A model generated the notes under the pieces. The model saw nothing but the letters and a program-made list of their open reading frames with translations. It had not been told where the DNA came from and did not search any database. The translations under genes and the position numbers were made by a program. Below, piece by piece: positions 13,182 to 29,366 of a stretch of 64,000 bases of DNA. Position 1 is the stretch's first letter. The number at the start of each line of letters is the position of its first letter. The stretch spans positions 7,335-71,334 of the forward strand of contig QZKU01000026.1 of the NCBI GenBank assembly GCA_003598085.1, written 5' to 3'. This DNA comes from Candidatus Abyssobacteria bacterium SURF_5. Lineage in GTDB: Bacteria > Abyssobacteria > SURF-5.

Positions 13182-14197
13182 CGCGCCGATACCTCGCGCA
13201 GCCGCCGCAGTTTTTCCAATGCGGCGCCGGAATCAATTGAGCTTGCGGCCGCTTCGATACCGTCGGCCACAGATTCGACTTTCCCGGCGGCAATAAGAGC
13301 GAAGGCAACGTTCAGGAGGACGATGTCGCGGCGGGCGCCTTCTTCGCCTTTCAATATAGCTTCGATGATTCTCGCGTTGGCGGCCGGATCTCCTCCGGAC
13401 AGCGCCTCCCTCCGCGATCGCTTGATTCCCAATTCGGCGGGATCGAATTCATAGGTCGTCACCTTTCCATCTCTGACTTCCGCTATGAACGAGGTGGAAG
13501 TGACGGTTATCTCATCAAGCCCGTCGGCCCCGCAAACCACAAACGCATGACGGGTGCCCAGATTTCTGAGTACATGAGCCAACGGCTCAAGAAAGCTGCG
13601 ATCGCACACCCCGATTACCTGCGCATCGGCAAACGCGGGATTGGAGATGGGTCCGAGAATGTTGAAAACGGTTCGAATGCCGATCTCGCGCCTCGGCCCG
13701 ACGGCATATTTCATGGCGCCGTGGTATAGAGGTGCAAACATGAACCCAAAACCCACTTCGTCAATCGACTGCTCGACTGCAGAGGGTTCGGCCTCGATTC
13801 GGATGCCCAGTTGCTCAAGGACGTCGGCGCTCCCGCAGAGGCTGGACATGCCGCGATTGCCATGCTTCGCAACCGCCACCCCCGCTCCCGCCGCAACAAA
13901 TGCGGCAGCTGTCGAAACATTGAAGGTGCCCGCCCCGTCTCCGCCGGTACCGCAAGTATCCACCAGCGGTCGGCGCTTCGGGTTCAAGCGGATGACTTTG
14001 TCGCGCATCACCTGCGCGCAGCCGGTGATTTCCTCAACCGTCTCGCCCTTCATCCGCAGCGACACGAGAAAAGCCGCGATTTGTGCGGGAGTCGCTCTGC
14101 CACTCATGATTTCGTCCATTGCAGCGGCAGCCTCGCCGGTTGATAGATTCTTCCTGTCGCACGTTTTCTTGAGGAATTCCTTGAACATGACGATCAC
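13178..14197 (-). CDS. trpD: Anthranilate phosphoribosyltransferase
   Basis: DTCGTGGDGAGTFNVSTAAAFVAAGAGVAVAKHGNR signature; 339 aa; its start overlaps the purE stop by 4 nt. Confidence 0.9.
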   Translation of the reverse strand: MIVMFKEFLKKTCDRKNLSTGEAAAAMDEIMSGRATPAQIAAFLVSLRMKGETVEEITGCAQVMRDKVIRLNPKRRPLVDTCGTGGDGAGTFNVSTAAAFVAAGAGVAVAKHGNRGMSSLCGSADVLEQLGIRIEAEPSAVEQSIDEVGFGFMFAPLYHGAMKYAVGPRREIGIRTVFNILGPISNPAFADAQVIGVCDRSFLEPLAHVLRNLGTRHAFVVCGADGLDEITVTSTSFIAEVRDGKVTTYEFDPAELGIKRSRREALSGGDPAANARIIEAILKGEEGARRDIVLLNVAFALIAAGKVESVADGIEAAASSIDSGAALEKLRRLREVSAR

Positions 14198-14718
14198 CCG
14201 GCGTGTTTGGAAATTTCCCGCTGCAGCGCTTTCTCTTTCTGTTCGACGGATCCAGCGAGATGAGCTTTATAAGCGGTGAGTTTCTTGCGGAGACGACCAT
14301 CGCCAAGCGCCAGTATCTGGACAGCCAACAATCCTGCGTTGCGCGCACCGGCCTTGCCAACCGCCATAGTCGCTACCGGCACTCCGGCAGGCATTTGTAT
14401 TGTTGAGAGGAGAGCGTCGAGCCCTTTCAATGGGGAAGAATCTATCGGCACCCCGATAACGGGAAGCGTCGTATGAGCGGCTATCATGCCGGCAAGATGC
14501 GCAGCGGCGCCCGCCCCGGCAATTATCACCTTTATCCCGTTTTCGGCCGCGCCTTCAGTGAGCGCAATGGTTCGTTTCGGCGAACGGTGCGCCGAAGACA
14601 CCTTCATGTCGTAGCCGACACCGAATTCATCAAGTATGTCGGCCGTTTCGCGCATGATCGCATGGTCGCTTTCGCTTCCCATGAAGATGTAAACCATCTT
14701 TTTTACCGCCTTCGGCAT
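14194..14718 (-). CDS. purE: N5-carboxyaminoimidazole ribonucleotide mutase
   Basis: VYIFMGSESD...SAHRSP...IIAGAGAAAHLAGM (PurE class I); 174 aa. Confidence 0.9.
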   Translation of the reverse strand: MPKAVKKMVYIFMGSESDHAIMRETADILDEFGVGYDMKVSSAHRSPKRTIALTEGAAENGIKVIIAGAGAAAHLAGMIAAHTTLPVIGVPIDSSPLKGLDALLSTIQMPAGVPVATMAVGKAGARNAGLLAVQILALGDGRLRKKLTAYKAHLAGSVEQKEKALQREISKHAG

Positions 14719-16005
14719 TTATGAATCCCTTTCGAGACGCGCCAGAGCTTTCTTGCCGATGTCGGAGCGGAAATATCTGCCCTCGAATCGGATTGTTTCG
14801 GCGCACTGGTATGCGCGCTCGATGGCGGAGGGGATGTCCTCGCCAAGGGCCGTAGCTCCGATCACGCGCCCACCGTCGGTGACAACCTGGCCGTCTTTCA
14901 ATTCCGTGCCGGCATGAAAAACAATGGCGCCGGCCACTTTTCGCGCGTTTTCCAATCCTGTGATTCGCATCCCCTTCTTGTATTTTCCCGGATATCCGCC
15001 GGATGCCAGGACAACACAAACTGCGGCATCGTCTGTCCATTCGGCCTGCATGTCGCTCAGCGTGCCGTCCGCACATGCGAGCATGAGAGGAACGAGATCG
15101 CTCTTGAGACGCGGAATGACGACCTGCGCTTCAGGATCGCCGAAGCGAACGTTATATTCAAGCACTTTCGGACCGGCTTCGGTCATCATGATTCCACAAT
15201 AAATCACGCCACGATATTCGCAACCCTCGTGCCGGAGAGCATCGATGGTAGGTCGAATTATCTGATTCTCAATATGTTCGAGAAGCGTCGGACTGACGAC
15301 GGGGGCCGGCGAATACGCGCCCATTCCGCCCGTGTTCGGCCCTTTGTCGCCGTCGTAGATGGCCTTGTGGTCCTGCGACGCGGGCATTGTCAGAATGTTC
15401 CTGCCGTCGGTAAAAGCGAGCACCGACGCCTCTTCGCCCTGCAGAAACTCCTCGATCACGATCCTGCTGCCGGCGCGCCCGAAAGCCCCCTCAACCAGGC
15501 ACTGATTGACCGCCGAAAGGGCGACTTTCTCATCAAAGGCAACAATGACTCCTTTTCCGGCGGCCAAACCGTCTGCCTTTATCACAACCGGCGTTCCGAT
15601 CTCATGCACGAATTCGGCCGCCTCTTCGGCCTCGCAGAACGTGTGAAAAGTCCCGGTGGGGATGTTGTATTTCGCCATCAGCTTCTTCGCGAAAATCTTG
15701 CTCCCCTCCAGCAGCGCAGCCTCTGCCCGCGGCCCAAAAGCCCTTAGGCCGCGCTCGCTCAGCTTATCAACCACTCCCTCGACAAGCGGCGCCTCGGGAC
15801 CAACCACCGTGAGGTCTATCTTCTCCTTTTCCGCAAAGGCGACGAGCTTCTCCGTATCGGTCGCCTTGACATTCACGCATTCCCCAAGCTCGGCTATTCC
15901 TGCATTTCCGGGAGCACAAAATATCTTTTTCACAAGAGGGCTCTGGCTTATCTTCCAGACGAGGGCGTGCTCTCTTCCGCCCCCTCCGATAACCAATATT
16001 TTCAT
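14719..16005 (-). CDS. purD: Phosphoribosylamine--glycine ligase
   Basis: MKILVIGGGGREHAL..., ATP-grasp core; 428 aa. Confidence 0.92.
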   Translation of the reverse strand: MKILVIGGGGREHALVWKISQSPLVKKIFCAPGNAGIAELGECVNVKATDTEKLVAFAEKEKIDLTVVGPEAPLVEGVVDKLSERGLRAFGPRAEAALLEGSKIFAKKLMAKYNIPTGTFHTFCEAEEAAEFVHEIGTPVVIKADGLAAGKGVIVAFDEKVALSAVNQCLVEGAFGRAGSRIVIEEFLQGEEASVLAFTDGRNILTMPASQDHKAIYDGDKGPNTGGMGAYSPAPVVSPTLLEHIENQIIRPTIDALRHEGCEYRGVIYCGIMMTEAGPKVLEYNVRFGDPEAQVVIPRLKSDLVPLMLACADGTLSDMQAEWTDDAAVCVVLASGGYPGKYKKGMRITGLENARKVAGAIVFHAGTELKDGQVVTDGGRVIGATALGEDIPSAIERAYQCAETIRFEGRYFRSDIGKKALARLERDS

Positions 16006-16025
16006 GGCGAGCCTCCTTGCTATTC

Positions 16026-17603
16026 CTAATGCTTGAAATGCCGCATGCCGGTGATGATCATCGCAATATCATGTTCATTGGCGGCGGCAATGACCTCATC
16101 GTCTTTTTTTGAGCCGCCGGTCTGGATGATCGCCCTGATGCCGGCCTCGGCGGCCGCATCAACGCCGTCACGGAACGGGAAGAACGCATCGGAAGCAAGC
16201 ACTCCGCCCTTGGCGCGCCCGGCGGACTTGTGAGCGGCAATCATACTGGAATCAACGCGGCTCATCTGGCCGGCGCCGACCCCGAAGACCGTGAAATCCT
16301 TTGCATACACAATCGCGTTCGATTTCACGTGCTTGCAAATGACCCACGCGAAAAGCAGGTCCTTCATTTCCTTTTCCGTCGGCTTGCGCTTCGTGACGAG
16401 CTTGAACTGCGACTGGTCGTACGTCGCCCGATCGAAATCCTGCAGCAGCATACCGCCGACTACGCGCCGCATGTTCGGCGCGCTGTCACGAGCGCCGCCC
16501 AACTCGCCGACGGCAAGAACCCTGAGGCTCTCGCCCCACCATTGCCGCGTTTTCAGCACCTCGAGCGCCTCCTTGGCAAACGAGGGAGCGATGATCGCTT
16601 CAATAAACGTGTTCGGCTTCGCCATCAACTCCGCCGCCTTGAGATCGATGTGGCGGTTCGCGCCGACGATGCTGCCGAACGCTGACACCGGATCCCCAAG
16701 CAGCGCGCGCGAATACGCCTCATGGATGTCATTGCCGACGCCGGCGCCGCATGGATTCGTATGCTTGATAATCACCGCAGTCGGCTCCTGGAAATCCTTA
16801 ACGATTTCCAGAGCGGCGTCCAGATCAAGAATATTATTGTAGGAGAGCGTCTTGCCATGCAGCATCTCGGCCGTGGACACGCTCGGCTCCTTCGCATTCG
16901 GATCGACATAGAAAGCGGCCGACTGGTGCGGGTTCTCACCATACCGCAGGTCCGCCTGTTTCCGGAATTGGATGTTGAGCATTGCAGGATATTTGCCGCC
17001 CTTCTTGTCCACAGCGGCAAGATAATCGGCAATCGCGCGATCATATGTGGCCGTATGTTCGAAGACCTCGCACGCCAGATCAAATTTCAGCTTCTCCGGA
17101 ACTTTGCCGCCTCCCCTTTTCATCTCCTCGATGATCTGCCCATATCGCGCCGGATTCACCACCACCACCACATCGCGATAATTTTTTGCCGCCGCTCGCA
17201 GCATCGTGGGCCCGCCGATGTCAATCTGCTCGATCGCGTCTTCCAGTTCGACGTTCGGCTTCGAAATCGTCTCCTGGAATGGATACAGGTTGACGACTAC
17301 CATGTCGATCAGCTCGATACCGTGCCGGTCAACCTGCTGCATGTGCTCGAGGTTGTCCCTGAGCGCAAGCAGCCCGGCGTGAATCTTGGGGTGCAGCGTT
17401 TTCACGCGCCCATCCATCATCTCGGGGAATCCCGTGTAATCGGAAACCGAACGAACCGGCACTCCGGCCTGGTCAAGAGTCCGCTGAGTACCGCCGGTTG
17501 AAAGAATTTCAACCCCCACTCCGGCCAGGAATCTGGCAAACTCGACAATCCCGGCTTTGTTGGAAACGCTCAAAAGCGCGCGTTGTATCTTATTGGCAGG
17601 CAT
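16026..17603 (-). CDS. purH: Bifunctional AICAR transformylase / IMP cyclohydrolase
   Basis: [15 protein letters not shown]...STGGT (MGS-like IMPCH domain) plus the AICARFT domain; 525 aa. Confidence 0.92.
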
Positions 17604-17621
17604 ATATTCACCTCGCTGAGA

Positions 17622-18443
17622 TCAGCTTGAACGAGAAAAATCCGGTAACGAGCATCCGTTCTTGATGTAATTCACCGCATTCCGAAATACCGCCACGCCC
17701 ATTCCCTCGCGCGGGGTTTTTTCGCGGGTCCAGCGTGGATGATTGGTCTGAAAAAGGTACGCCTCCGGATGAGGCATCAGGCCGAAAATCCGGCCCGTCA
17801 AATCGCAGATGCCCGCAATGCCGTCTTGCGAGCCGTTGGGATTGTACGGGTATCCGTCTGCTTTCCCCTCTTCATCCACATATTGAAGCACGACGTGTCC
17901 GCCCGCGTGCAGCCGTTCGAGCACGGTTTCACTCGAAGTAACGAGCTTGCCCTCGCCATGACGGACGGGCAGGTACATTCTATCAATCCCTTTTGTGAAA
18001 ATGCAACGCGAATTCGGGTTCGCCGCCAGATAGACCCAGCGGTCTTCAAACTTGCTCGAATCGTTAAACGTCAGCGTCACCTGCTGATCGCCGTATTTCC
18101 GGTCGAGCGCCGGCAAGAATCCCATCTTGACAAGAACCTGGAAACCGTTGCAGATGCCGATGATCAATTTTCCGTCTTCAATAAAACGGAGCAACTGATC
18201 CCGCAGATGCTGTATCAGCTTGTTGGCGAGCACCTTGCCCGCGGCGATATCATCTCCGTATGAGAATCCGCCGGGAATCGCGAGAATGTCATAATCGCTT
18301 AATGATTTCCCGCCCGGCTCGATCAGGTCGTTCACGTGCACCCGCTCGGCGCGACCGCCGACCCGACGCATGTTAAAGGCATACTCGGTCTCATAATCGC
18401 AGTTGATGCCGTAGCCGGTAAGCACTAATACGCTTGGTTTCAT
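17622..18443 (-). CDS. purQ: Phosphoribosylformylglycinamidine synthase, glutaminase subunit
   Basis: Class-I glutamine amidotransferase with GICNGFQ (catalytic Cys) and HPE near the C-terminus; 273 aa. Confidence 0.85.
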   Translation of the reverse strand: MKPSVLVLTGYGINCDYETEYAFNMRRVGGRAERVHVNDLIEPGGKSLSDYDILAIPGGFSYGDDIAAGKVLANKLIQHLRDQLLRFIEDGKLIIGICNGFQVLVKMGFLPALDRKYGDQQVTLTFNDSSKFEDRWVYLAANPNSRCIFTKGIDRMYLPVRHGEGKLVTSSETVLERLHAGGHVVLQYVDEEGKADGYPYNPNGSQDGIAGICDLTGRIFGLMPHPEAYLFQTNHPRWTREKTPREGMGVAVFRNAVNYIKNGCSLPDFSRSS

Positions 18444-18478
18444 AATTCTAATTCAAAGATTTGATATAACCTTGAAAG

Positions 18479-20215
18479 CTAACTCTTAATAAATCTTTTG
18501 TAAAAGACCCAAGTGTTGTGAAAACCTCTCCGTTTATTACGATTTGCGCCTCTGAAAATGACAACATTGATTCCAATTTTTCGGCAGATAGGGCAATTAC
18601 ATCTTTCCCAAGGCTTCTCAGATAGAAGTTTTTCATATTTTTCAGCAAAATGATTGTCTTCACTTTGACGTTCTAACAAAGGTCCGTATCTATTTAATGC
18701 AATAAGAGTTTCTTCTGCTCCTTTTGGATTGTCTCCAAAAACACCCAAGGAGCGAAGACAATTTTCTTCAAGTATACGAGCTTTCTCTTTGGAAAGTTTC
18801 TTATCTGCTACGGCTTCCTGTATCGCTTTGGAATCACTAAACGGTACCCGAACGGCCGCATACCATGTTCCGTCAACCGCCAAATAATTTTGATCCGATC
18901 TTAGCCAAGCCTTCCGAAAATATGAGGCAGAATCAAAGCTAGATACTCCCAATGTGCGAAAAAATGGTTGTAGCTTGGGCCGAAGGATCCCAAATAGATG
19001 CAGCCATAAGTTTTCTTCGTGCCCTCTTGTTCGCTCTTGCAGAGCTTTCCTGACTGCGCCCACAATCTCGATTATTTCTGAATCAGAGCGTGGTACTAAT
19101 CCACCCAAAGCTATATGCCGATATCCCATATCTATGTACTGATGCAAGCAGGATATATAGGAGCGGACACCAACGCCCTGAATGACGCCCATAGGTATAA
19201 AAGAATAGTTCTTTTTCTTCCATAGTCCAATGAATTCAGCAGCGTTTTCTGTTGTCAGTTTTACTCTTTCGTACCTGGCAGATAGACTCAATATGCGCTT
19301 ACGTGAACTTCCATCTTTATGTTTTTTTACTATTTCTTGCAATGGTATATGGTCTACTGACGCGCCTATATCAAAGCCGTATTTGTGGTACATATCTAAA
19401 GCTTCCATTGTGGAAAAAGGAGGTTTACTCTCCGCTGTATATGAAAATGCCCCACAATCTCCAAACAGAAGCATGTTATCCGGGAGTTGTAGCACCTCTC
19501 TGAGGTTTCCAGATGAGCACCTCCCCTTGGCCATTCTATAAATTGCACCTTTACCCATATTCATGTGAGATAAACTTAAAAGCACGCCATCATAAGGGGC
19601 ATCTTTGCCGTATATTTCATGGGCGTATGCTTTACGAGACTCACCAGCCTTTATGGGTTCTTTGCCTTCGTCTGGAATAAATGGCTCATCAACGTAATCG
19701 TCCCAATCAGGAAAAAAATAAATATATGAGCGGATGCTTTTACCTTTTTTTTCGATAGATGCTGTCTTAGATGGCAGTTTTTCAAGCCATGATTTCATGG
19801 CTTTCATTTTCATGCCGATGGGTCCTTTTGCGTAAGTAAACTTCGCTTTTGGGAAGATTTTCTCAATCCCCCTGACCGCATTAAGATAATCTGCACCTAA
19901 ATTCAGGAATATACCCTCCGGCTGTGATAGCTTTTGAAGCGCTGATAGGACCCTTTTGTTAAATGATGTGGCAGAATGCGAGTCAAAACGCTGGTCGTAT
20001 TGACTTATTATAGTTGTAGCATCGATCAATCCATATTTGGCTGAGAGAATCTTAATCTGTAATCCCGGAGGCCAGCCTTTAACGAGAAGCATTTTTCTTA
20101 GAACTCGAAAGTTAACTCCATCATACAAGCACATGGCCGGAGCTTTTATTACCTGCGGTAATTTAGTTTTTGAACAGGCCACTATCAATAAGTGACCTTC
20201 GAGGTGAGTTGTCAT
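18479..20215 (-). CDS. TGT-family (queuine/archaeosine tRNA-ribosyltransferase-like, DpdA-like) base-exchange enzyme with a roughly 230 aa N-terminal domain of unknown function
   Basis: The C-terminal approx. 350 aa carry the TGT hallmarks. LFGDCGAFSY aligns to the TGT Asp-nucleophile loop (DSGGFQ). GVSSFDSASYF aligns to the second catalytic Asp loop (GxDMFDCV). The C-terminal zinc site CNCPICx22H matches TGT CxCxxC...H. The protein is Lys-rich, AT-rich codon usage; 578 aa. Confidence 0.72.
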   Translation of the reverse strand: MTTHLEGHLLIVACSKTKLPQVIKAPAMCLYDGVNFRVLRKMLLVKGWPPGLQIKILSAKYGLIDATTIISQYDQRFDSHSATSFNKRVLSALQKLSQPEGIFLNLGADYLNAVRGIEKIFPKAKFTYAKGPIGMKMKAMKSWLEKLPSKTASIEKKGKSIRSYIYFFPDWDDYVDEPFIPDEGKEPIKAGESRKAYAHEIYGKDAPYDGVLLSLSHMNMGKGAIYRMAKGRCSSGNLREVLQLPDNMLLFGDCGAFSYTAESKPPFSTMEALDMYHKYGFDIGASVDHIPLQEIVKKHKDGSSRKRILSLSARYERVKLTTENAAEFIGLWKKKNYSFIPMGVIQGVGVRSYISCLHQYIDMGYRHIALGGLVPRSDSEIIEIVGAVRKALQERTRGHEENLWLHLFGILRPKLQPFFRTLGVSSFDSASYFRKAWLRSDQNYLAVDGTWYAAVRVPFSDSKAIQEAVADKKLSKEKARILEENCLRSLGVFGDNPKGAEETLIALNRYGPLLERQSEDNHFAEKYEKLLSEKPWERCNCPICRKIGINVVIFRGANRNKRRGFHNTWVFYKRFIKS

Positions 20216-21033
20216 TTTTTGTAAATGAATTTGCGCTTGTAATTGTTGGTTAAGTTAAATTGATTATTCGCTAAAATTAAATGTGGAAGTTCCTCAAAGG
20301 ATGATATTGTAAAATGTGGACAAATATCCCTTACCGCCGGCATCCAAAATGGCTGAAAGCCACCAGCGAAATAGATAGTGTAGAATCCAGCTTCCTTAGC
20401 AGGCGCTATATCTCGATCAAGCTGGTCTCCGACCATGTAATTTGACTGAGATGCAACATCAAATTCTGCAAGGATCTCTTGATATATCCTCACTTCTTTC
20501 CTTGCAACTAGGATTTTGTGGATGTAATTAGAAAGCTCATACTTATTCAGTAATAATTTGCACTTATCCCGGTTACCTTCCGTTAGGATAACCAGAAGCC
20601 CACCTCGCTGGTGTAATTTCTTTACGCCCTGACGCACCCCAATCCGTAATGGCGGAATTTCCGATTTCAGTTTTTTAATGAACAGCATCTCCATTTCGTT
20701 AATAAAATCTCGGCCCAGCACATCTGTTCCTGTTCTTACTGCTTCTCTCACCGACACGAGGGGAGAATGTCCCGTCAGAGCTAGGGCTAGGGCATTTATT
20801 AGCAATCGCGCAGGATATTCCAAATTATAATTATGCAGTCGCGCTAAATTTTGATCCATCCTTCTCAGAAACGAAAGCTTATCATCCGAGGGAGCAGTAA
20901 CCTTCAAATGCTTTTCGATCTCGGAAAGCAAAATCAATTGGCTTTTCGCATACACCAAATCAGTATCCCATAATGTATTATCTGCATCCAAGACCACTAG
21001 CACTTCTCGGTTCCTTTTAGATTTTGCCTTCAT
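20212..21033 (-). CDS. HAD-superfamily hydrolase/phosphatase. The track ORF extends to 21129; the start is placed at Met MKAKSKRN to avoid overlap with the upstream gene
   Basis: HAD motif I VVLDADNTLWDTD (DxDxT), motif II ILTEGN, conserved Lys, and motif IV GDQLDRD; 4-nt overlap with the TGT-like gene. Confidence 0.72.
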   Translation of the reverse strand: MKAKSKRNREVLVVLDADNTLWDTDLVYAKSQLILLSEIEKHLKVTAPSDDKLSFLRRMDQNLARLHNYNLEYPARLLINALALALTGHSPLVSVREAVRTGTDVLGRDFINEMEMLFIKKLKSEIPPLRIGVRQGVKKLHQRGGLLVILTEGNRDKCKLLLNKYELSNYIHKILVARKEVRIYQEILAEFDVASQSNYMVGDQLDRDIAPAKEAGFYTIYFAGGFQPFWMPAVRDICPHFTISSFEELPHLILANNQFNLTNNYKRKFIYKK

Positions 21034-21053
21034 ATGAACCCTACTTGAAAAAG

Positions 21054-21746
21054 CTACAATGTCTCTGGGAAAACAAACATCAATCCACAAATGACTATCC
21101 ACAAAACAAAAACGATTGTACTTAGCCACAACATAAAAACCCCCAGTTGAAGGGTTTGCAGCTTAATTCGAATTTTATAAGCTATTAAATAAGCCTCATG
21201 AATGTAATGCTTTATATACAGCAATTGAAGTTGATTACTGCAATTGTCGCAAAATGCTGCTGCCCAACCTCTGGGGGTAGCCTCAATTATCTTTGGAAAG
21301 AACAGGAAGGAGGCTGGATTTTTCAAGTCTGCACTTTTCGGAGGTGAACCTTTCGACCAATCATGAGGTACGTTAAATCGTGGTCTAACTGACCAAATTA
21401 TGAAAGAAGCTCCTGAAACTACCAACAGACAGAAGAGACCGAATACGGAATAGAAAAGCCACAATGTCCAACTCCACATTTGATAATTCATCAATGACCC
21501 ATTGTCGTCTTTGGGAAGAAGAGCCACAAAAATTGCTCCTGCGAGAGCGCTTAAGAACGCGGTTGCTGTCAATATCCGGTTGGCCTTTTCGTCTTCATAT
21601 TCCGTAAGGTGCTTTACCTCCTCGAAAGAGGTTTTCGCAAAACTTAGCAGAGCACCAAGGTCTTCTCTTGCAGGATCAAGATTCTTCAGTTCTGAAAATA
21701 TGGGCTCTGAAATCTTCCGGCTTTCAGAAGGGCTAGCCTTAGCCAT
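21054..21746 (-). CDS. Small integral membrane protein (about 60 aa cytoplasmic N-terminus plus 3 predicted TM helices), a candidate membrane effector of the island
   Basis: Hydrophobic segments ILTATAFLSALAGAIFVALL, WTLWLFYSVFGLFCLLVVSGASFIIW and LGVFMLWLSTIVFVLWIVICGLMFVF; no enzymatic motif; AT-rich. Confidence 0.5.
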   Translation of the reverse strand: MAKASPSESRKISEPIFSELKNLDPAREDLGALLSFAKTSFEEVKHLTEYEDEKANRILTATAFLSALAGAIFVALLPKDDNGSLMNYQMWSWTLWLFYSVFGLFCLLVVSGASFIIWSVRPRFNVPHDWSKGSPPKSADLKNPASFLFFPKIIEATPRGWAAAFCDNCSNQLQLLYIKHYIHEAYLIAYKIRIKLQTLQLGVFMLWLSTIVFVLWIVICGLMFVFPETL

Positions 21747-21791
21747 TGATCTCTTTGTCCCTCCCTTGTCTTCCGTTATTCCTTCTCATTA

Positions 21792-22976
21792 TTATGGGAC
21801 TGTTGGCTTGGATTGCTTTTGAGCAGGACAAAAATTCTTGAAATCACATGCTGTGCAGGTTCTAATATTCTGATTAGTCTTCCAGCATTTTCTGATAGCT
21901 ACTCCAGCAATTTCTGCAAGCACGGAAGCCTCAATTTCTTCAACAGTTTGATCAAATCTGGATAAACTAGCTCCTATCGCACTTTTATTCACGGGAATAA
22001 TTCTTATTGAGCGATTTTCTTTGAACGTCCTAGAAAGACTAGGTAAATTGCTGCGTCGGTTCCAGCGTTGGATATTTTCTAGGTCCTTGCCTGTTGCCAT
22101 TATATCAGTTTGGCCTTGGTTGATATCGTTCTTAAGTGCTAGCATATCTTCAATTGATAAAGCTAATTCATTTATATATATGAGTATACCCGCTATTATT
22201 TGCTTTGCGCCCACCTGTTGTGATCGTAGCCAGGAATAGGTGAGAATCTGCCATTCGTGATGTTTCCACGTTTCGTCAACAAAAGAAGGGCGGCGCATGC
22301 CTTTGTAATCGACAATGATTTCATATTCATCAAGGGAAGAAACTTTGAAGTAATGCTGAACATCTGAATGCTGATTCAAATAATGCAGAAGCAGACTTCC
22401 AGATGGAGCATTTACAATGCTAACAGAGCTTATGACATCAATAACGCCCTTCATTCCATAATAATTTGATCTGCTAAGATTGGGATGATAACTTGGCATG
22501 TCTCGACTGCACTTCAATTTCACTTCTGCCTCGGCAATTATTGGAAACAGATGCATTCCCCATGTGTTTATGGCCATTTCTGCTCGCTGGCTAGCAATAA
22601 GTTTATGTGGATGATTGGCGTCGGGACAAAACCCTGGTGTCGTTGCAGAAGAATCAAATGGACAAAAAAGATTTGGCGGAGGTGGAAGACCTCTCGCGAT
22701 CAATCTATCATTAATTTGCGCTTCGACATTACGGATGTCTGATTCCCATAGCCACGGAAATCTTCTCTTTTTTGGCTCGTCACGCCATTCACGATACGCC
22801 TCTTCCATCAATCCATGGATAAATTCACCAAACCACAACTGAACCGGAGTCGATGGTGGGAGGGACCCTTTATTGTAATATCTATACTGAAGGCCGCATG
22901 TTAAGAATGCCAACAAGTCACCCGTCAAGCTGTATTCAGGAATACTATACGGTTTTGGTCGTACAGAAAGAAACAT
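21792..22976 (-). CDS. Cas4/RecB-like PD-(D/E)xK nuclease with a 4Fe-4S cluster cysteine set
   Basis: N-terminal C...YRYY motif (LTCGLQYRYY) typical of the Cas4/AddB nuclease domain. Core MKGVIDVI (Asp) plus IVDYKG (D-x-K). C-terminal Cys triad CTACDFKNFC. 394 aa. Confidence 0.68.
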   Translation of the reverse strand: MFLSVRPKPYSIPEYSLTGDLLAFLTCGLQYRYYNKGSLPPSTPVQLWFGEFIHGLMEEAYREWRDEPKKRRFPWLWESDIRNVEAQINDRLIARGLPPPPNLFCPFDSSATTPGFCPDANHPHKLIASQRAEMAINTWGMHLFPIIAEAEVKLKCSRDMPSYHPNLSRSNYYGMKGVIDVISSVSIVNAPSGSLLLHYLNQHSDVQHYFKVSSLDEYEIIVDYKGMRRPSFVDETWKHHEWQILTYSWLRSQQVGAKQIIAGILIYINELALSIEDMLALKNDINQGQTDIMATGKDLENIQRWNRRSNLPSLSRTFKENRSIRIIPVNKSAIGASLSRFDQTVEEIEASVLAEIAGVAIRKCWKTNQNIRTCTACDFKNFCPAQKQSKPTVP

Positions 22977-22982
22977 TTGCTC

Positions 22983-25331
22983 CTACCTCAAATGTGTCAG
23001 GTTTTGTAGTCCCCTGCCCCAATGCCAGGTATTACCTCTATCCCATCCGGTGCCGATATTGCGGATTCTATTTTTGACGGCATTCAGCCCAACTAGCAAG
23101 AGGACATCCTGAGCTCTACTGAAGGCAACAAAGTAATGTCTAATAAGATCGTCAAATGCTCTATCAAGGGATGAACGTGTTGACGTTCCCAAGGGAGAAA
23201 ACTGCCTCAATTCATCTTCAATCTTACATGTTTTGCCGCCATCTCTTGGGAATCTCTTAAAAGCCTGTCGCCAGTGATTTATCCTAAAATCACTTCCTAC
23301 ATCTACAATTACAAATGGGAATTCCAGTCCTTTTGCCTGATGAATTGACATGATATTAACTCTGTCGCTAGGAAGCGTATCAAGTAGGTCCTCATTGACT
23401 TCTATGGCTCCGCTGGCTAATGGAACAAAGATGTTCCAAAGCGCCTCTTTAACAAAAGCGTGCTCTAGACGGATATCGGCCTTATTTGGGTCGAATAGGA
23501 TTTCTGCTCCGAAGCTTCCAAACAAACCACTCTGATTGATGGATCTAGTTATAGCTTCAAGATAAACCAATCCTTCTATGTCGTCTTGCATGCTAGGTAT
23601 CCAAGTCACAAGCTTATAAACTAGATCATTCAGTGGGACTCTCTCCTTTTTCTGAATTCTTCTCCCCAGAGGAATTCGAGATTGCCAAGATTGAACGAAC
23701 TGTTGAAGATGTTCCTTGTTTGCGAGGTGGTTATTATTGACATAACCCATGGCATGGTCACGCCACGAGTTGAATGTGTTGGCCGCTGTCGTCGGCAGAT
23801 TTGTTAAACTCTTTTGAACGGAACTCCATGGATCAACACATTCCAGAATTAGACCACAAAGCACTTGCACTTCTGGAATTTGTTGAAGGGGACATCCGCG
23901 TGGATTAAAAACTTCAATTCGGGGCGATGCTTCATGTAGTTCAGTTCGTAGGAGAAAGGGAAGTCGCGGTCTATCAGAGTAATCAAATTCTTGCGGAGAA
24001 GAACATAACAAGGCAATATCACCGAGAGAGCCATCTTTGTTCAGCTTAATCGTAGCTGCCTGTCCTTTTTGGGGGATCCGCAGACCTTGTCCTCTCGACA
24101 CTTCTTCAATGAGTACAGCCAAATCATGAGCTAACGATCCGACGTCGTCTCTAAACATACCTAGAATTGGACATTCTTGTGGTTCTGGAATTTGCCGTAC
24201 GTGTTTAATTTTAGGTTTAGAGTTTACGCGAGCTTTCTGAAATTGCTGATCCAAGCCAATGAAGTTATTTATAAATTCTACGATAGTCGGAGTCGACCGA
24301 TAATTTAAAGAAAGATATTTTGGAACTGGTTTGAGATTTAAACATTTGGCCATTCTCTTTTCGAACGACCGAAATAATTCTACTGTTGCACCGCGAAAGC
24401 GGTAAAGCGATTGATCGTCATCTCCGACAACAGTAATGCTTCCCTTGTTAATTAAGGCAGCACGTGTCAATTCAAAGTATATCTTCTCTTGAAGTAGGTT
24501 TGTGTCCTGATATTCATCTATTAGGACGAACTTTATATTTTGAAGAAAGGAGTTTAACTTTTGGGAAAGAATTTGTTGAAAAAACTCTGCTTCTAATTTT
24601 GCAAAATCGTACAAAAGCTTCTTCTGTAATTCTTGATTATATGCAGTGATGGCATCACACGCAATTTGTGCTCCCAAATGCTGAGCCTTCCGTTGGAATG
24701 CAGAAATATCTATTTGGTCATGAAAGAAACGGTCTTTAATTTCTCTTAAAGTAGAACTTAACTCAGGAACATTTAACCCGAAGGTTCCACCTCTTAAAGA
24801 AGCAACATAATTCAGCAGATTTGGGTCCTTGTATCTGCCATTGGAAAAAAGGCCAGTCCGCATCATCAAGGCATTTGAAACAAAATCTTGGACTACGATT
24901 GGCGCAGGAGCACCAGGAGCGCGATAATTTCCTAAAGTCTCTTCAGCTATGCTGTCCAGAGTTCCTGTAATAATCCTGTTGAAATCTAGTGACTTCAACC
25001 TTGATCTTAACTTCTCGTATGATGAATCCTTTAGGAAAGCAGCACGAAGTTGGTCTCCCCATCCTAGAATCCTTGACCTAAGTTCAGCGGCAGCTTTACG
25101 GGTAAAGGTGGTAACCAATACATTCGAGGGGTCCATTTCATCAAGATATATTAACTTCAGCACTCTAAGTGTAATGACAGTTGTCTTACCACTGCCCGGT
25201 CCCGCGATAAGATAAAGCGAGGAACCTTGAGCAGCCTTAATCGCTTCATATTGGCTAAGATTTTTTTCTTTTCGTATGTCTCTCTGAATGAAGGTCAATA
25301 CGGCTTTTTCAAAATCGGGCCAACTAATCAT
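22983..25331 (-). CDS. UvrD/Rep/PcrA-like superfamily-1 DNA helicase
   Basis: Walker A AGPGSGKT, Ia VTTFTRKAAAEL, motif II VLIDEYQDTN, III VVGDDDQSLYRFRGA, IV LSLNYRSTPTIVEF and VI IHQAKGLEFPFVIV; 782 aa; 6-nt gap to the nuclease gene. Confidence 0.88.
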   Translation of the reverse strand: MISWPDFEKAVLTFIQRDIRKEKNLSQYEAIKAAQGSSLYLIAGPGSGKTTVITLRVLKLIYLDEMDPSNVLVTTFTRKAAAELRSRILGWGDQLRAAFLKDSSYEKLRSRLKSLDFNRIITGTLDSIAEETLGNYRAPGAPAPIVVQDFVSNALMMRTGLFSNGRYKDPNLLNYVASLRGGTFGLNVPELSSTLREIKDRFFHDQIDISAFQRKAQHLGAQIACDAITAYNQELQKKLLYDFAKLEAEFFQQILSQKLNSFLQNIKFVLIDEYQDTNLLQEKIYFELTRAALINKGSITVVGDDDQSLYRFRGATVELFRSFEKRMAKCLNLKPVPKYLSLNYRSTPTIVEFINNFIGLDQQFQKARVNSKPKIKHVRQIPEPQECPILGMFRDDVGSLAHDLAVLIEEVSRGQGLRIPQKGQAATIKLNKDGSLGDIALLCSSPQEFDYSDRPRLPFLLRTELHEASPRIEVFNPRGCPLQQIPEVQVLCGLILECVDPWSSVQKSLTNLPTTAANTFNSWRDHAMGYVNNNHLANKEHLQQFVQSWQSRIPLGRRIQKKERVPLNDLVYKLVTWIPSMQDDIEGLVYLEAITRSINQSGLFGSFGAEILFDPNKADIRLEHAFVKEALWNIFVPLASGAIEVNEDLLDTLPSDRVNIMSIHQAKGLEFPFVIVDVGSDFRINHWRQAFKRFPRDGGKTCKIEDELRQFSPLGTSTRSSLDRAFDDLIRHYFVAFSRAQDVLLLVGLNAVKNRIRNIGTGWDRGNTWHWGRGLQNLTHLR

Positions 25332-25350
25332 AGATGCACTTTTTACAACC

Positions 25351-28300
25351 TCACCAGTTCAGCGGCTGCTGCCATGCCCGCTTCAATTGGAATATATCGG
25401 CTGAAAGGATCTTTTGTCTGCCATTTTTCAAGACCAGGAGTGGAGATCGTGTTACTTTTCCCGCTCTGGCAAATGGGACTCCATCCATCATTTGTTCAAA
25501 CTCTTTCGCTTTTCGAGGAGGAACAGTTATCACGAACCGGCTCTGGGACTCGGAGAATAGCAGGTAATCGGCGCGCAGAGGTTCAGGCTGCGGAACGGCG
25601 GACAGATCGGCCGTGATGCCGAATCCGCCGGCAAAGGCGCTTTCCGCAAGCGCGACTCCGAGACCGCCGTCGGAGCAGTCGTGGCACGAGGCGATCAGGC
25701 GGCGATCGATCGCATCCGATACTCTTGAATAAATCTGTCTTGCAAGCTGAGAATTCACCCGCGGTACTGAATTCCCGATGAACCCGTGGTGCGCGAAGTA
25801 TTCGCTGCCGCCCAGTTCATTCTTCGTCACGCCGACCACGTATACGAGGTGGCTTGGCCGCTTCACGTCCATCGAAACGACTTTGCGCACGTCCTCGATC
25901 CGCCCGAGCACCGAGAACAGGAGCGTGGGCGGCACCGATATCTTGATGTCGCCGATCATGTAATCGTTCTTCATGCTGTCCTTGCCCGAGATGCAGGGAA
26001 CATCGTACGCCGTACAATAGTCGTAAAGCGCCATGTTCGAACGGACAAGCTGCGCGAGTTTGTAGTACCCGTCGGGCGTCTTCTCCGATTGCACAGGATC
26101 GGGCCAGCAGAAGTTGTCGAGTCCGGCCAGATACCCAAGCCGGCCGCCGACAGAAATCGCATTTCTCACCGCCTCGTCGATAGCGCAGGCGGTCATGTGA
26201 TATGTGTCGAGGTCGCTGTAGCGCGGGCAGATGCCGCTCGCAACGACCACGCCTTCATATGAATCATACAGAGGCTTCAGGACGGCTGCATCGCCGGGCC
26301 CGTCATTGGAGCTGCCGATAAACGGCTTGAGCGCGCTCAAGCCCTGGACCTCATGATCGTATTGCCGTACAAACGACTCTTTGCTGCACACGTTCAGCCG
26401 CGCCAGCATCTGCTCCAGCAAACGGTTGTAGTCCTGCGGCTCGGGAAGGTCCGGCTCTTCGTGCTTCGGCGCCTTCCAGCGCGCCTGCAAATTCATTCTC
26501 GGCACGCCCTCATGCAGGAAATCCATGTCGAGGTGAGCAACCACCTTACTTTCGTACAGAACCTCAAATTTGCCGGAATCGGCAAATGTTCCAAGCACCG
26601 TCGCTTCGACGTCGCGCCTCCTGGCCAGTTCGAGAAAGCGATCGATCTTTTCGGGATCAACCGCGAGCGTCATTCGCTCCTGCGCTTCCGATAGCAGGAT
26701 TTCCCACGGCTGCAGGCCCTTATATTTCAAGGGCGCCTTCTCAAGTTCGATCCGGCATCCGTTGGAGAAGCGCGCCATTTCGCCGACCGACGACGAAAGG
26801 CCGCCGGCGCCGTTGTCCGTGATCGCGCGGTACAATCCCAGATCGCGGGCCTCAAGCAGGAAATCGGTCATCTTCTTCTGCGTGATCGCGTCGCCGATCT
26901 GAACCGCCGACGTCGGCGACTCGCTGTGAAGTTCTTCGGATGAAAAGGTGGCGCCGTGAATGCCGTCCTTGCCGATCCGACCGCCGGTCATCACGATCAG
27001 GTCGCCCGGCAAAGCGGTCTTTTCATGCGCCGGCTCGCCGAGTATCTCCTTCGGCATGAGCCCGCCTGTCCCGCAGAACACGAGCGGCTTGCCCGCGTAA
27101 CGGTCGTCAAAGAGGATGCTGCCGTTGACATCCGGAATCCCGCTCTGGTTTGCGCCGTCGCGCACGCCACGGTGCACGCCCTTGAAGATGCGCTTCGGAT
27201 GGAGCAGGCGGGGCGGGAGAGGCTTGTCATAATCCGGTGGAGCGAAACAGAACGTGTCCACATTGAAAATCAGACGACACCCCTTGCCGGTGCCGAAAGG
27301 ATCACGGTTGACGCCGACGATGCCGGTTACCGCGCCGCCGTATGGATCGAGAGCTGACGGGCTGTTGTGCGTTTCCACCTTCATGACCAGGTTCCACCTG
27401 TCATTGAAGCGGATGACTCCGGCATTGTCGTGGAAAACCGATACCAGCCACGGAACCCGCTTGGAAATCTCGTCGGTCGAACGTCTGATATACGTCTTGA
27501 ACAGGCCGTTGATTTGGCGCCGGCCCTGTTCGTCCTCATAATCGATGAAGGCGTTGAATATCTTGTGCTTGCAATGTTCCGACCACGTCTGCGCAATGCA
27601 TTCCAGTTCGACGTCTGTCGGCTGATTCGAAAGTCCGTACCTGCTGCGATCGCGAATCGCGTTTTCGCTGCGAAAATAATTGCGGATCACCCGCATCTCA
27701 TCGAGACTGAGCGAAAGGATCCCCTCGCGGCTGATGCGTATCAGCTCCTGGTCGGACACAGCAAGATCGAAAGCCTTGACATGGACTGGCTGCGGTGTCC
27801 CTGCCAACGGAAGCGGGAGTGAGATGCCGCCGGAACGGCGGAATTCATCGGCGTCGGCGATGCGCCACTGTTCGATCAGGCCGTTGGCCAGCAGCCCGCC
27901 GGCGATTCTCTCAACCTGAGCCCGCTCCAGGCGGCCCCGCAAAACATATTGTTTGGCGGTGAAGACGGTGCTCCCGTCCGCGCGCTCTCCAAAGATATCG
28001 ATCATCGCCTCGCGCGAAGTCTTGCCTACATTATCGGTGACTCCGGGTTTGAAGCCGATTTCGATGACCCACGAGAAATCAGAGGCCAGAGGCTGGTCGA
28101 GCGTGGACACATCGATGACGGGATCGGCGAACAGGTGCGTGCGAAGCATGTCGGCGTCGTCGCATCTCAGGCTGGTCAACAGCGTGTATACCCGTATTAG
28201 CCGCGCGTCGTCGACGGCGATATGCAGGTCTTCCACGATATTTTTTCGAATGGCGTCGCCCGCGGCATCGAATTGATCGCGCCGCAGCCCGACTTCTATT

Positions 28301-28380
28301 CTGTAGGTATTAAGATCAATCACGGTTACCGCCGGTACTTTACCTTCCCTGTCCCCGAAACTATTCGCCCGATAGTCCAA
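25351..28380 (-). CDS. purL: Phosphoribosylformylglycinamidine synthase subunit PurL with N-terminal PurS-like domain(s) fused. The annotated start is TTG; an alternative GTG at 28323 sits 2 nt after the purM stop
   Basis: AIR-synthase-related domains (SFGDREG..., PurM-like repeats) with an N-terminus resembling PurS (KPGVTDNVGKTSREAMIDI); 1009 aa. Confidence 0.85.
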   Translation of the reverse strand: MDYRANSFGDREGKVPAVTVIDLNTYRIEVGLRRDQFDAAGDAIRKNIVEDLHIAVDDARLIRVYTLLTSLRCDDADMLRTHLFADPVIDVSTLDQPLASDFSWVIEIGFKPGVTDNVGKTSREAMIDIFGERADGSTVFTAKQYVLRGRLERAQVERIAGGLLANGLIEQWRIADADEFRRSGGISLPLPLAGTPQPVHVKAFDLAVSDQELIRISREGILSLSLDEMRVIRNYFRSENAIRDRSRYGLSNQPTDVELECIAQTWSEHCKHKIFNAFIDYEDEQGRRQINGLFKTYIRRSTDEISKRVPWLVSVFHDNAGVIRFNDRWNLVMKVETHNSPSALDPYGGAVTGIVGVNRDPFGTGKGCRLIFNVDTFCFAPPDYDKPLPPRLLHPKRIFKGVHRGVRDGANQSGIPDVNGSILFDDRYAGKPLVFCGTGGLMPKEILGEPAHEKTALPGDLIVMTGGRIGKDGIHGATFSSEELHSESPTSAVQIGDAITQKKMTDFLLEARDLGLYRAITDNGAGGLSSSVGEMARFSNGCRIELEKAPLKYKGLQPWEILLSEAQERMTLAVDPEKIDRFLELARRRDVEATVLGTFADSGKFEVLYESKVVAHLDMDFLHEGVPRMNLQARWKAPKHEEPDLPEPQDYNRLLEQMLARLNVCSKESFVRQYDHEVQGLSALKPFIGSSNDGPGDAAVLKPLYDSYEGVVVASGICPRYSDLDTYHMTACAIDEAVRNAISVGGRLGYLAGLDNFCWPDPVQSEKTPDGYYKLAQLVRSNMALYDYCTAYDVPCISGKDSMKNDYMIGDIKISVPPTLLFSVLGRIEDVRKVVSMDVKRPSHLVYVVGVTKNELGGSEYFAHHGFIGNSVPRVNSQLARQIYSRVSDAIDRRLIASCHDCSDGGLGVALAESAFAGGFGITADLSAVPQPEPLRADYLLFSESQSRFVITVPPRKAKEFEQMMDGVPFARAGKVTRSPLLVLKNGRQKILSADIFQLKRAWQQPLNW

Positions 28381-29366
28381 ACGGTCTCGCCTTGTGCGTC
28401 CAGATATGAAAGCGTTTCTTCCTCGTCGGCGGGCGATACAATAACGACCATGCCGACGCCCATGTTGAACGTGCGCAGCATTTCGCCCTCATCGATATCG
28501 CCTTCCTGCTGGATGAATTGAAATATCGAGAGCGGCCTCAACGATGCCATATTTATTTCCGCATCGACCGCCTTCGGCAGCACCCGAGGCACATTATCGG
28601 TCAATCCGCCGCCGGTGATATGCGCCATCCCTCGAATCAGATTCTTATCGAGAAGCCCGCGCACCGCCCGCGCATAACAGCGGTGGGGCTCGAGCAACTC
28701 GTCCGCCAGCGTCTTCCCGAGCGCATCCACTCTTTGATCCAGTCGATACCTTCCCGAATCCACCAGCAGCTTGCGCACCAGCGAATATCCGTTGGTATGG
28801 AGGCCCGAAGACTGCACTGCAACTATCACGTCGTCCTTTCGGATGGCTGAGCCGTCAATGATCTTATGCTTATCGACAACCCCAATGATCGTTCCGGCCA
28901 GGTCATACTCGCCCGGCTGGTAAAAATCGGGCATCTCGGCTGTCTCGCCGCCGATCAGCGAACATCCCGCCGCCCGGCAGCCTTCCGCCAACCCTGAGAT
29001 CACCTGCTCGGCAATATCGACATCGAGCTTGCCCATCGCGAGGTAATCCAGGAAAAATAAGGCCTCCGCCCCCTGCATCAAAATGTCGTTCACGCAATGA
29101 GAAACCAGATCGATTCCGACAGTATTATGCCGGCCGGTCACAAATGCGATCTTCAGCTTTGTGCCGACTCCGTCAACACTCGAAACAAGAATGGGCTCCC
29201 GATAGCGCGCGCTGTCAAACCGGAACAGGCCGCCGAACAATCCGATATCCTGCACCACGTTCGCGGAAAACGTCGAGCGCGCAAGCGGAACGATACGCCG
29301 CTTCAGCGAGCTTGCGGCTTCGATGTCGACTCCGGCTTGCTTATAGGTGAACGGTTCTTGTGTCAT
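28326..29366 (-). CDS. purM: Phosphoribosylformylglycinamidine cyclo-ligase (AIR synthetase)
   Basis: YKQAGVDIEA...VSSVDGVGTKLKIA...AHITGGGL signature; 346 aa. Confidence 0.92.
   Translation of the reverse strand: MTQEPFTYKQAGVDIEAASSLKRRIVPLARSTFSANVVQDIGLFGGLFRFDSARYREPILVSSVDGVGTKLKIAFVTGRHNTVGIDLVSHCVNDILMQGAEALFFLDYLAMGKLDVDIAEQVISGLAEGCRAAGCSLIGGETAEMPDFYQPGEYDLAGTIIGVVDKHKIIDGSAIRKDDVIVAVQSSGLHTNGYSLVRKLLVDSGRYRLDQRVDALGKTLADELLEPHRCYARAVRGLLDKNLIRGMAHITGGGLTDNVPRVLPKAVDAEINMASLRPLSIFQFIQQEGDIDEGEMLRTFNMGVGMVVIVSPADEEETLSYLDAQGETVWTIGRIVSGTGKVKYRR

Follow-up and report, generated by a model that had tools for sequence, protein, structure and literature searches.

The 64-kb window analyzed here is a stretch of 64,000 nucleotides (nt) on contig QZKU01000026.1 of Candidatus Abyssobacteria bacterium SURF_5, from the lineage described as Candidatus Abyssubacteria (PMC6121073). 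Between 13 and 33 kb, it carries an operon of purB, purC, purF, purM, purL, five cassette genes, purQ, purH, purD, purE, trpD, and more genes, separated by intergenic gaps of -55 to +45 nt. The five cassette genes span positions 18479 to 25331 and make up a 6.9-kb insert (18444 to 25350) that fills the spacer between purL and purQ. Read from the purL side, they encode a helicase, a nuclease, a membrane protein, a hydrolase, and a DNA-guanine transglycosylase of the DpdA type (Table 1). Positions refer to the whole window, and all pur and cassette genes lie on the minus strand. The pur and trp genes form one tight co-directional block (13178 to 33032), the order of which is kept in most related loci. 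Upstream of this block, neither a purine riboswitch nor any other Rfam element was found, and no Rfam family was detected anywhere in the window.

Table 1 Features of the purL-purQ locus in the window and state of the same spacer in related loci (L numbers)
Feature	Position	Strand	Remarks
purL, PurS-fused phosphoribosylformylglycinamidine (FGAM) synthase II, 1009 residues	25351..28380	-	Left host flank; Pfam AIRS, AIRS_C, FGAR-AT_linker, PurS
Left junction, 19-nt spacer GGTTGTAAAAAGTGCATCT	25332..25350	-	purL stop to helicase ATG
UvrD/AddA/PcrA-like superfamily 1 (SF1) helicase, 782 residues	22983..25331	-	Pfam UvrD-helicase 2e-45
Cas4/AddB-type PD-(D/E)XK nuclease, predicted iron-sulfur protein, 394 residues	21792..22976	-	Pfam PDDEXK_1 5e-10; PADLOC Cas4 7e-07
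PycTM-like membrane protein, 230 residues	21054..21746	-	PADLOC PycTM 7e-10; 3 predicted hydrophobic segments (hydropathy scan)
HAD-family hydrolase, 273 residues	20212..21033	-	Pfam HAD_2 and Hydrolase
DUF6884 (DpdC/YaaA-like)::DpdA DNA-guanine transglycosylase fusion, 578 residues	18479..20215	-	DUF6884, residues 1-150; DpdA, residues 166-578
Right junction, 35-nt AT-rich spacer	18444..18478	-	dpdA stop to purQ ATG
purQ, FGAM synthase glutaminase subunit, 273 residues	17622..18443	-	Right host flank; Pfam GATase_5 1.7e-84
Gene-free purL-purQ spacers (7 loci)	L083, 131 nt; L166, 114 nt; L167/L168/L169, 61 nt; L170, 273 nt; L171, 7 nt
PDDEXK_3 (PF13366) ORF in purL-purQ spacer, 125-141 residues	L165, 220-597; L081, 9495-9872; L082, 9497-9922		Co-directional

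At the left junction, the purL stop codon (TGA, 25353 to 25351) is separated by 19 nt from the helicase start codon (ATG, 25331 to 25329). At the right junction, exactly 35 nt lie between the stop codon of the last cassette gene (TAG, 18481 to 18479) and the purQ start codon (ATG, 18443). Both host genes are whole: PurL keeps its native C terminus (...QQPLNW, followed by the stop) and PurQ its native start (MKPS...). In nucleotide alignments, the 3' end of purL can be aligned with its relatives up to the stop codon, where the likeness stops, and the 5' end of purQ can be aligned from the ATG onward. A preliminary description of this stretch had placed the insert at exactly these boundaries, with five genes co-directional with the pur genes and with the continuity of the pur operon preserved. 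Its estimate of about 35 nt for the right spacer is exact, whereas the left spacer is 19 nt long rather than about 17 nt.

The insert differs sharply in composition from its surroundings, with a GC content of 0.414 compared to 0.554 in the rest of the window. At third codon positions, the GC content is 0.36 to 0.41 in the five cassette genes and 0.62 to 0.72 in the pur genes. The shift falls close to the purL stop on one side and to the purQ start on the other, no more than a few tens of bases away, and the insert is the sole compositional anomaly of the 64 kb, with no other 1-kb block falling below a GC content of 0.50. A mosaic purL flank, considered on account of a lower GC content in the last 200 nt of the gene, was rejected, since relatives share this lysine-rich, lower-GC tail.

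The gene nearest purQ encodes a fusion protein, the larger part of which is a bona fide DpdA. It scores 362.6 bits against the NCBIfam equivalog NF041059 (cut-off, 200), matches PADLOC DpdA with an E value of 2.3e-102, and matches by profile PDB entry 7UI4, the solved structure of a DpdA that inserts 7-cyano-7-deazaguanine (preQ0) (E value, 4e-84 over residues 21 to 425). The same entry is the best Foldseek match of the predicted structure (E value, 7e-24), which has a predicted local distance difference test score of 73 overall and above 85 across most of the N-terminal domain. As the tRNA-guanine transglycosylase (TGT) domain dominates a Foldseek search with the whole model, this match gives no independent fold evidence on the N-terminal domain. 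The zinc site C539/C541/C544/H566 (CxCxxC...H) and the aspartates Asp253, Asp288, and Asp428 are invariant in 26 homologues. In Dpd systems, DpdA is a TGT-fold DNA-guanine transglycosylase, and the cassette encodes such a protein.

The N-terminal 150 residues match Pfam DUF6884 (E value, 3.5e-10; 40.6 bits with a cut-off of 30), and the DUF6884 motifs CSxxK and SA..G are invariant in the 26 homologues as well. A weak match to PADLOC DpdC (E values of 6e-4 to 5e-3) is also present. DUF6884 is reported to be a distant relative of YaaA (PMC11701544), and the DpdC family is equated with DUF6884 in one paper and with DUF328 in others. In the Dpd system, DpdC is the protein of the DUF328/YaaA superfamily that turns dPreQ0 into dADG. 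In classical Dpd loci, a solo DUF6884 gene with weak DpdC matches lies directly upstream of an unfused dpdA, so that the product of 18479 to 20215 is best read as a DpdC-like::DpdA fusion. A search with the fusion protein gave more than 1,700 homologues, and those with an organism name are spread over several phyla, among them Bacillota, Acidobacteriota, and Planctomycetota. As deposited for SURF_5 on a contig of 72,319 bp (P0001), the protein is 100% identical to that of the window but has 537 residues, 41 fewer than the ORF. Since homologues align to 99% of the 578-residue ORF and the conserved CSxxK motif is among the residues left out, the start codon in the public record is probably misassigned.

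The first two genes after purL encode a predicted helicase-nuclease pair. The helicase has complete motifs (GPGSGKT, DEYQD, GDDDQSLYRFRGA, YRS, HQAKGLEF, and VAFSRAQ) and matches PADLOC GajB-like and RTasHel profiles with E values of approximately 1e-34, while its NCBIfam PcrA and AddA matches all stay under the equivalog cut-offs. The nuclease has a four-cysteine pattern, C...CxxCx5C (C27, C375, C378, and C384), in addition to DYK and QxxxY motifs.

The membrane protein and the HAD-family hydrolase follow. The latter starts at ATG 21033, and not at GTG 21129 as in the list of open reading frames (ORFs), and is then 100% identical to P0241, a protein deposited for SURF_5. Its closest NCBIfam names are nucleotidase-like families, under cut-off, and its stop codon overlaps the dpdA start (ATGA). 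HAD homologues close Dpd-type clusters in L172 and L127. In L172 (Dongia deserti, 8998 to 10771), a membrane protein-HAD pair stands at the end of a classical Dpd cluster with the order DndB-TGT-DndB-QueE-QueD-QueC-YhhQ-membrane protein-HAD, and in L173 (2826 to 4696), such a pair adjoins a solo DUF6884 gene. The counterpart in the window (20212 to 21746) is related to both: compared by phmmer with the genes directly upstream of the HAD homologues, its membrane protein gives E values of 3e-35 (L173) and 3e-31 (L172). The two genes thus appear to be a conserved pair that accompanies DpdA or DUF6884 loci, with a putative accessory role. Two further families were tried as homologues of the membrane protein. 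The soluble c6 family (~340 residues) was rejected, since a hidden Markov model built without L172 shows no relationship, and the c5 membrane family, which comes next to the nuclease on its downstream side in 11 loci, shows no detectable homology.

To place the cassette among its homologues, 81 loci retrieved with a DpdA profile were compared (80 metagenome loci and one viral contig). Of the 81 loci, 59 contain a helicase homologue and 44 a nuclease homologue, and the order is nearly always dpdA-helicase-nuclease with spacers of tens of bases. Genes related to preQ0 recur around them (20 loci with QueD, 13 with QueC, and some with YhhQ and QueE), which connects the triad with preQ0 metabolism. 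A small membrane protein of an unrelated family occurs in 11 of the 81 loci. In L084 to L147 and L164 (for example, L088, 4196 to 9477, and L104, 10001 to 15292), a fused DUF6884::DpdA is followed by a UvrD-like helicase and then by a Cas4-like nuclease, a triad conserved in dozens of contigs. Loci with the fused triad often carry queD, queC, or yhhQ and never dpdB. Loci with unfused DpdA have the classical layout of DndB/DpdB, QueD/C/E, a solo DUF6884/DpdC-like gene, and DpdA, with DpdE and DpdF nearby; such classical loci from the same search carry DndB in L158 (E value, 1.6e-60) and also in L172.

The surroundings of the module vary from locus to locus. The flanking ORFs of 28 other loci (137 ORFs) comprise 148 Pfam families, none of which occurs in more than 3. 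Defense-type or mobile neighbors elsewhere include BrxC/D, MqsA, an IrrE-like protein, a transposase (L174), and a P4-type integrase (L127). The last of these loci (15250 to 19605) is GC rich and combines the triad, queD, queC, a 353-residue c6-family protein, HAD, and the integrase, a classical island layout that the window does not have; the c6 family also adjoins dpdA in five other loci. According to a rough census, the triad is usually a unit of its own, since only 3 of the 37 loci with neighbors on both sides are co-directional with both and within 60 nt of them. The intra-operon placement in the window is atypical for the module. A link between the triad and purine genes elsewhere was considered because L092 has purD at a distance of approximately 8 kb and because adenylosuccinate synthetase was matched twice among the 137 flanking ORFs, and proved unsupported: of ten candidate flanking ORFs that were checked, none is purA, and no family is recurrent.

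Among the plasmid and phage records of annotated collections, none carries the fused DpdA; the 43 plasmid records and the one phage record that matched did so over the unfused DpdA part only, none of them over at least 80% of the query. The sole contig from a viral collection with the fused triad is L164 (10001 to 15273, on an IMG/VR contig of 142,954 bp). No description of a DpdA-UvrD-Cas4-like system was found in the searchable literature, which is absence of evidence only.

The purL-purQ spacer was then followed through related genomes. Among GTDB species representatives, the best PurQ match is 63%, and the closer relatives came from a protein database search. The cassette is absent from all ten related loci (PurQ, 75 to 85% identical over the alignment), which share with the window the gene order purB-C-F-M-L-Q-H-D-E-trpDCFBA-pmbA. 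Seven of them have a gene-free spacer and three a small PDDEXK_3 ORF. This is the comparison of sites that the preliminary description had proposed, and a cassette common to all relatives, which it had named as the mark of vertical inheritance, is not what they hold. The cassette is a recent, lineage-specific, and foreign arrival.

The three PDDEXK_3 ORFs are bounded by inverted CCGCAAAGGCGCAAAG / CTTTGCGCCTTTGCGG repeats of the CGCAAAG type. They are 72 to 82% identical to one another, approximately the divergence of the host genes, so that the three can be considered orthologous. Such an ORF resembles a palindrome-bounded selfish element, and it may mark the spacer as recombination prone. 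In neighbor-joining trees of PurQ, PurL, and PurH, the window clusters with L165 and L081; L082, a neighboring locus of this group, carries the ORF too. No remnant of the PDDEXK_3 ORF or of the CGCAAAG inverted repeats was found in the window. Because the window groups with loci that bear the ORF, replacement is more parsimonious than simple insertion, and the ancestor probably had a PDDEXK_3 ORF at this site, the place of which was taken by the cassette. The earlier picture of an insertion into an empty purL-purQ site is thus borne out as far as the cassette is missing in relatives, but the site itself was probably occupied already.

Farther away, purL is followed directly by purQ in most loci in which both genes were found (among 80 distant genomes retrieved with PurQ), and in others, the spacer holds cargo of different kinds. 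A LOG-family gene occurs in Omnitrophota and Planctomycetota, a GIY-YIG ORF in L054, Fic and a membrane protein in L007, and large secreted proteins in L039 and L049. The varied cargo in relatives and distant phyla marks the purL-purQ junction as a fluid site. The LOG-family gene (~225 residues) lies between purL and purQ in L024 (9325 to 9999) and also in L018, L041, L047, L053, L066, L069, L072, L074, and L079; Pfam PF03641 was confirmed for L024, and the other loci were assigned by sequence similarity. The metagenome-assembled genomes (MAGs) bearing it are labeled Omnitrophota, Planctomycetota, and, in some cases, unclassified bacteria. Instead of being selfish cargo, this gene may be linked in function to purine nucleotide metabolism. 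That the spacer is structurally fluid is indicated further by L170, whose 273-nt spacer (9728 to 10000) holds a direct repeat of 37 nt in addition to a GC-rich hairpin, GGGGACACCTTGCCGCAAGGTGTCCCC.

Two observations concern PurQ itself. At its 3' end (17622 to 17660), the window gene encodes a lineage-specific C-terminal tail of approximately 10 residues (…GCSLPDFSRSS), and alignments with homologues cover only ~96% of the 273 residues. In addition, the exact PurQ of the window is absent from a large protein collection in which other proteins of the same contig are present.

No mobility determinant was found at the locus. The five cassette proteins have no match to integrase, recombinase, or transposase families (Pfam, PADLOC, and NCBIfam), and a tblastn search of the 64-kb window returned nothing for four queries from related loci, of which two were integrases and two transposases. 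ARAGORN found no tRNA or transfer-messenger RNA in the window, and no direct or inverted repeat of at least 12 nt brackets the insert. The features of an integrative island or prophage, namely an integrase, tRNA-adjacent insertion, and att repeats, are therefore all missing, as the preliminary description had held. The search for short repeats at the boundaries that it had called for yielded GGTTGTA/GGTTATA as the sole string common to both spacers, which is at chance level for AT-rich strings of 19 and 35 nt. Compared with the spacers of relatives, neither window spacer shows significant similarity (P of at least 0.05 over 28 comparisons), and exact breakpoints can thus not be placed inside the spacers. 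Apparent resemblances of the 35-nt spacer to the purQ-proximal spacer of L165/L167 and of the 19-nt spacer to that of L081 disappeared after shuffling (P of at least 0.05, 28 tests).

The signals that could separate the cassette from the operon are missing as well. No terminator-like site was detected at either junction, in agreement with the earlier statement that no terminator-like hairpins are visible there, and folding of the junction regions does not differ significantly from that of shuffled sequences (z scores of +1.0 and -0.65, the latter for the right 35-nt spacer). Neither spacer contains a sigma-70-like match, and both are too short to hold a promoter or terminator that does not overlap coding sequence. 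In strand, spacer length, and the lack of a terminator or promoter match at the junctions, the cassette genes are arranged like members of the pur operon. Given spacers of 19 and 35 nt without a terminator, the pur operon mRNA most likely includes the cassette, as the preliminary description had proposed. To reach purQ and the genes beyond it, transcription must cross at least the 3' end of the cassette. As PurL and PurQ are subunits of one essential enzyme, only a non-polar insertion would be tolerated, which would explain the absent terminators.

The account that we favor, with a probability of roughly 0.62 for the whole, is that of a horizontally acquired cassette in the purL-purQ spacer, representing a Dpd variant that lacks DpdB and is expressed by read-through of the pur operon. 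The cassette would be carried on the pur mRNA, and the segment from purQ through purH, purD, purE, and the trp genes would be expressed by read-through across it.

Alternatively, the cassette could be transcriptionally autonomous: one or more promoters within the insert, which is AT rich, or near the 3' end of purL would then drive the five genes along with purQ and what follows it, uncoupled from the promoter of the purine operon. Fortuitous promoters are frequent where foreign AT-rich DNA has entered a GC-rich host, and weak sigma-70-like matches do occur at several places inside the cassette as well as within purL, on the minus strand at 25420 to 25391, 60 nt upstream of the helicase ATG. 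The usual standing of the triad as a unit of its own in the census described above points the same way. However, promoter-like matches are overall as numerous as in shuffled sequence (17 versus 15.1 ± 3.8), the match at 25420 overlaps conserved purL coding sequence (ADIF), and none is found in the last 250 nt before purQ. Moreover, with no terminator between purL and the cassette, pur transcripts should enter it anyway. Autonomous transcription hence appears somewhat unlikely, and read-through from purL the better explanation.

As to the arrival of the cassette, we propose that it was captured in the purL-purQ spacer of the long pur-trp operon in the SURF_5 lineage, most likely replacing the PDDEXK_3 ORF, and that illegitimate recombination at a fluid spacer would be the favored route. 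The preliminary description had suggested homologous replacement through the conserved pur flanks, which would imply a related donor already carrying the cassette at this site. The flanks are indeed conserved genes, the junctions fall exactly at gene ends, as an exchange of the whole spacer predicts, and at least three allelic states of the spacer exist among relatives. Yet no donor was found, since among the 81 DpdA loci, no other genome or metagenome contig has the cassette between pur genes. The flanks are host-like up to the stop and start codons, the purL, purQ, and purH trees are concordant with no sign of a mosaic flank, and the first entry of 41%-GC DNA into an operon of 55 to 58% GC would still need an illegitimate event. 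We consider the homologous route quite unlikely and favor illegitimate capture.

The domain content suggests how the captured genes might work together. The DpdA domain would swap guanine in DNA for preQ0 supplied by the queuosine pathway of the host, and the DUF6884/DpdC-like domain might bind DNA or convert the inserted preQ0 to a derivative such as 7-amido-7-deazaguanine (ADG). The UvrD-like helicase and the Cas4-like nuclease could form an AddAB-like motor-nuclease acting on unmarked DNA, by analogy with the characterized Dpd system and with UvrD-Cas4 modules of restriction-modification (R-M) systems. The helicase ATPase may stand in for the missing DpdB.

A different function can be imagined for the same genes, namely that of a DNA repair or epigenetic hypermodification module whose position in the pur operon is functional and couples guanine exchange in DNA to purine supply (GTP to preQ0). 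PreQ0 derives from GTP by an established pathway. Furthermore, DUF6884 has been linked to DNA-lesion binding (PMC11701544), and pairs of UvrD and Cas4-like proteins are also known from non-defense contexts (PMC5704561). Against this, the cassette is absent from the ten related loci and is not a conserved part of the operon, no purine genes recur in the flanks of the 28 other loci, and genes of bacteriophage exclusion (BREX), toxin-antitoxin, and mobile-element type lie near the module elsewhere. In addition, the characterized Dpd system restricts unmodified DNA (PMC5699537). A repair or hypermodification role is in our view improbable, and a role in defense is the one we would expect of the cassette.

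Several observations weigh against the favored account. According to the summary of PMC10164549 given in PMC12839542, the known DpdA requires the ATPase DpdB for insertion, and the five cassette proteins have no match to DpdB (a ParB/DndB-like ATPase), DndB, or ParB in Pfam, PADLOC, or NCBIfam. No gene for preQ0 synthesis was found in the 64-kb window. Next to fused DpdA, HAD occurs in a single locus (L127) and a PycTM-like membrane protein in none of those searched. The order of the window genes, helicase-nuclease-membrane protein-HAD-dpdA, differs from the norm of the family, of which it is a circular permutation opened at the usual dpdA|helicase spacer. Because the HAD stop overlaps the dpdA start, the HAD-dpdA adjacency is not new, and the permuted order would go back either to a circular intermediate or to a donor that was already so arranged, two origins that the order does not tell apart. 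A promoter inside purL or the cassette may contribute to expression, and the promoter scan covered the sigma-70-type consensus only. Finally, the sequence comes from one metagenome-assembled contig only, and a second, independent assembly with these junctions was not found.

That the 6.9-kb fragment was mis-joined between purL and purQ is very improbable, in spite of the one short-read MAG contig and the extreme contrast in composition, since two independent mis-joins would be needed, one directly behind the purL stop and the other no more than 35 nt from the purQ start, of genes that are adjacent in relatives, in a region with no repeat able to bridge the assembly graph, and around five intact, tightly packed genes oriented with the operon at a spacer that is demonstrably variable in relatives.

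On the favored account, the locus offers a clean natural case of multigene, defense-type cargo in an essential biosynthetic operon, with no mobility genes and the operon unbroken, while both alternative states of the site, a gene-free spacer and a small selfish ORF, are visible in relatives. It gives concrete form to the question of how islands with no integrase land and get expressed. Should the triad modify DNA without DpdB, the minimal machinery for 7-deazaguanine insertion would have to be redefined. A stronger combined reading would hold three things at once: a promoterless, integrase-less, Dpd-like immunity cassette living on pure pur read-through, with marking and restriction co-regulated with purine supply; a spacer hotspot seeded by a palindrome-flanked PDDEXK_3 ORF and open to overwriting by multigene cargo; and a widespread, undescribed, DpdB-free minimal 7-deazaguanine R-M triad. 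We regard this combination as doubtful.

Among known systems, the cassette is closest to Dpd (dpdA to dpdK, Salmonella Montevideo type), with which it shares a bona fide DpdA, a putative domain of the DpdC superfamily, and helicase and nuclease genes; related loci carry queC, queD, queE, and yhhQ like classical dpd islands. It differs from these islands in lacking the DpdB ATPase as well as DpdD to DpdK, and in its DpdC-like domain, which is of the DUF6884 branch and forms one protein with DpdA. For DpdE, DpdF, DpdJ, and DpdK, no PADLOC match was found in the cassette, and GajB-like/UvrD and Cas4 matches appear instead: in the presumed restriction part, a UvrD-type SF1 helicase and a Cas4-like nuclease take the place of the SNF2/DEAD helicases and PLD nuclease of Dpd. 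Modules of the cassette type comprise three to five genes in contrast to approximately 11 in Dpd. From its domain content, the cassette would be a compact Dpd variant rather than a classical Dpd island.

The helicase-nuclease pair recalls the UvrD-Cas4-like modules attached to R-M systems (Hudaiberdiev et al. 2017, PMC5704561) and AddAB, as an SF1 UvrD-like helicase is paired with a Cas4/AddB-cysteine PD-(D/E)XK nuclease beside a DNA-modifying enzyme. Unlike in the UvrD-Cas4-like modules, the two are separate genes and not a fusion, and they stand beside a transglycosylase, where those modules have a type III Mod/Res pair or a Dcm methylase. An association with TGT or DpdA is not mentioned in PMC5704561.

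Integron cassettes likewise consist of packed co-directional cargo with no room for a promoter of its own and an apparent reliance on upstream transcription. In contrast to them, the 35-nt right spacer contains no attC-like structure at the 3' end, and none of the five proteins is an integrase. Furthermore, purL rather than intI/attI lies upstream, the pur flanks are syntenic, and the unit has five genes instead of one. The small ORFs found in the spacers of other genomes (PDDEXK_3 / GxxExxY in L165, L081, and L082, and GIY-YIG in L054) resemble the cassette in occupying the purL-purQ spacer co-directionally and leaving the operon undisrupted. They are, however, single ORFs of approximately 125 residues, those of the PDDEXK_3 type being flanked by repeats, whereas the window contains neither such an ORF nor the repeats and holds a 6.9-kb multigene system.

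Defense loci at core-gene hotspots with no identifiable mobilization are already documented in the pan-genomes of Escherichia coli and Pseudomonas aeruginosa (PMC10121019). As in those hotspots, a variable locus lies between conserved genes, its cargo differs among relatives, and there is no integrase or att site. What sets the present site apart is that the variable locus is a short intercistronic spacer (7 to 273 nt when gene free) of a biosynthetic operon, between the genes for two subunits of one enzyme, with cargo that is co-directional and promoterless in appearance. The preliminary description had called the arrangement unusual for a defense cassette, and this applies to its placement and not to the missing integrase, for which the hotspots are a precedent. 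The lack of an integrase alone is already known from them, and what is unusual here is the intra-operon, promoterless-looking placement.

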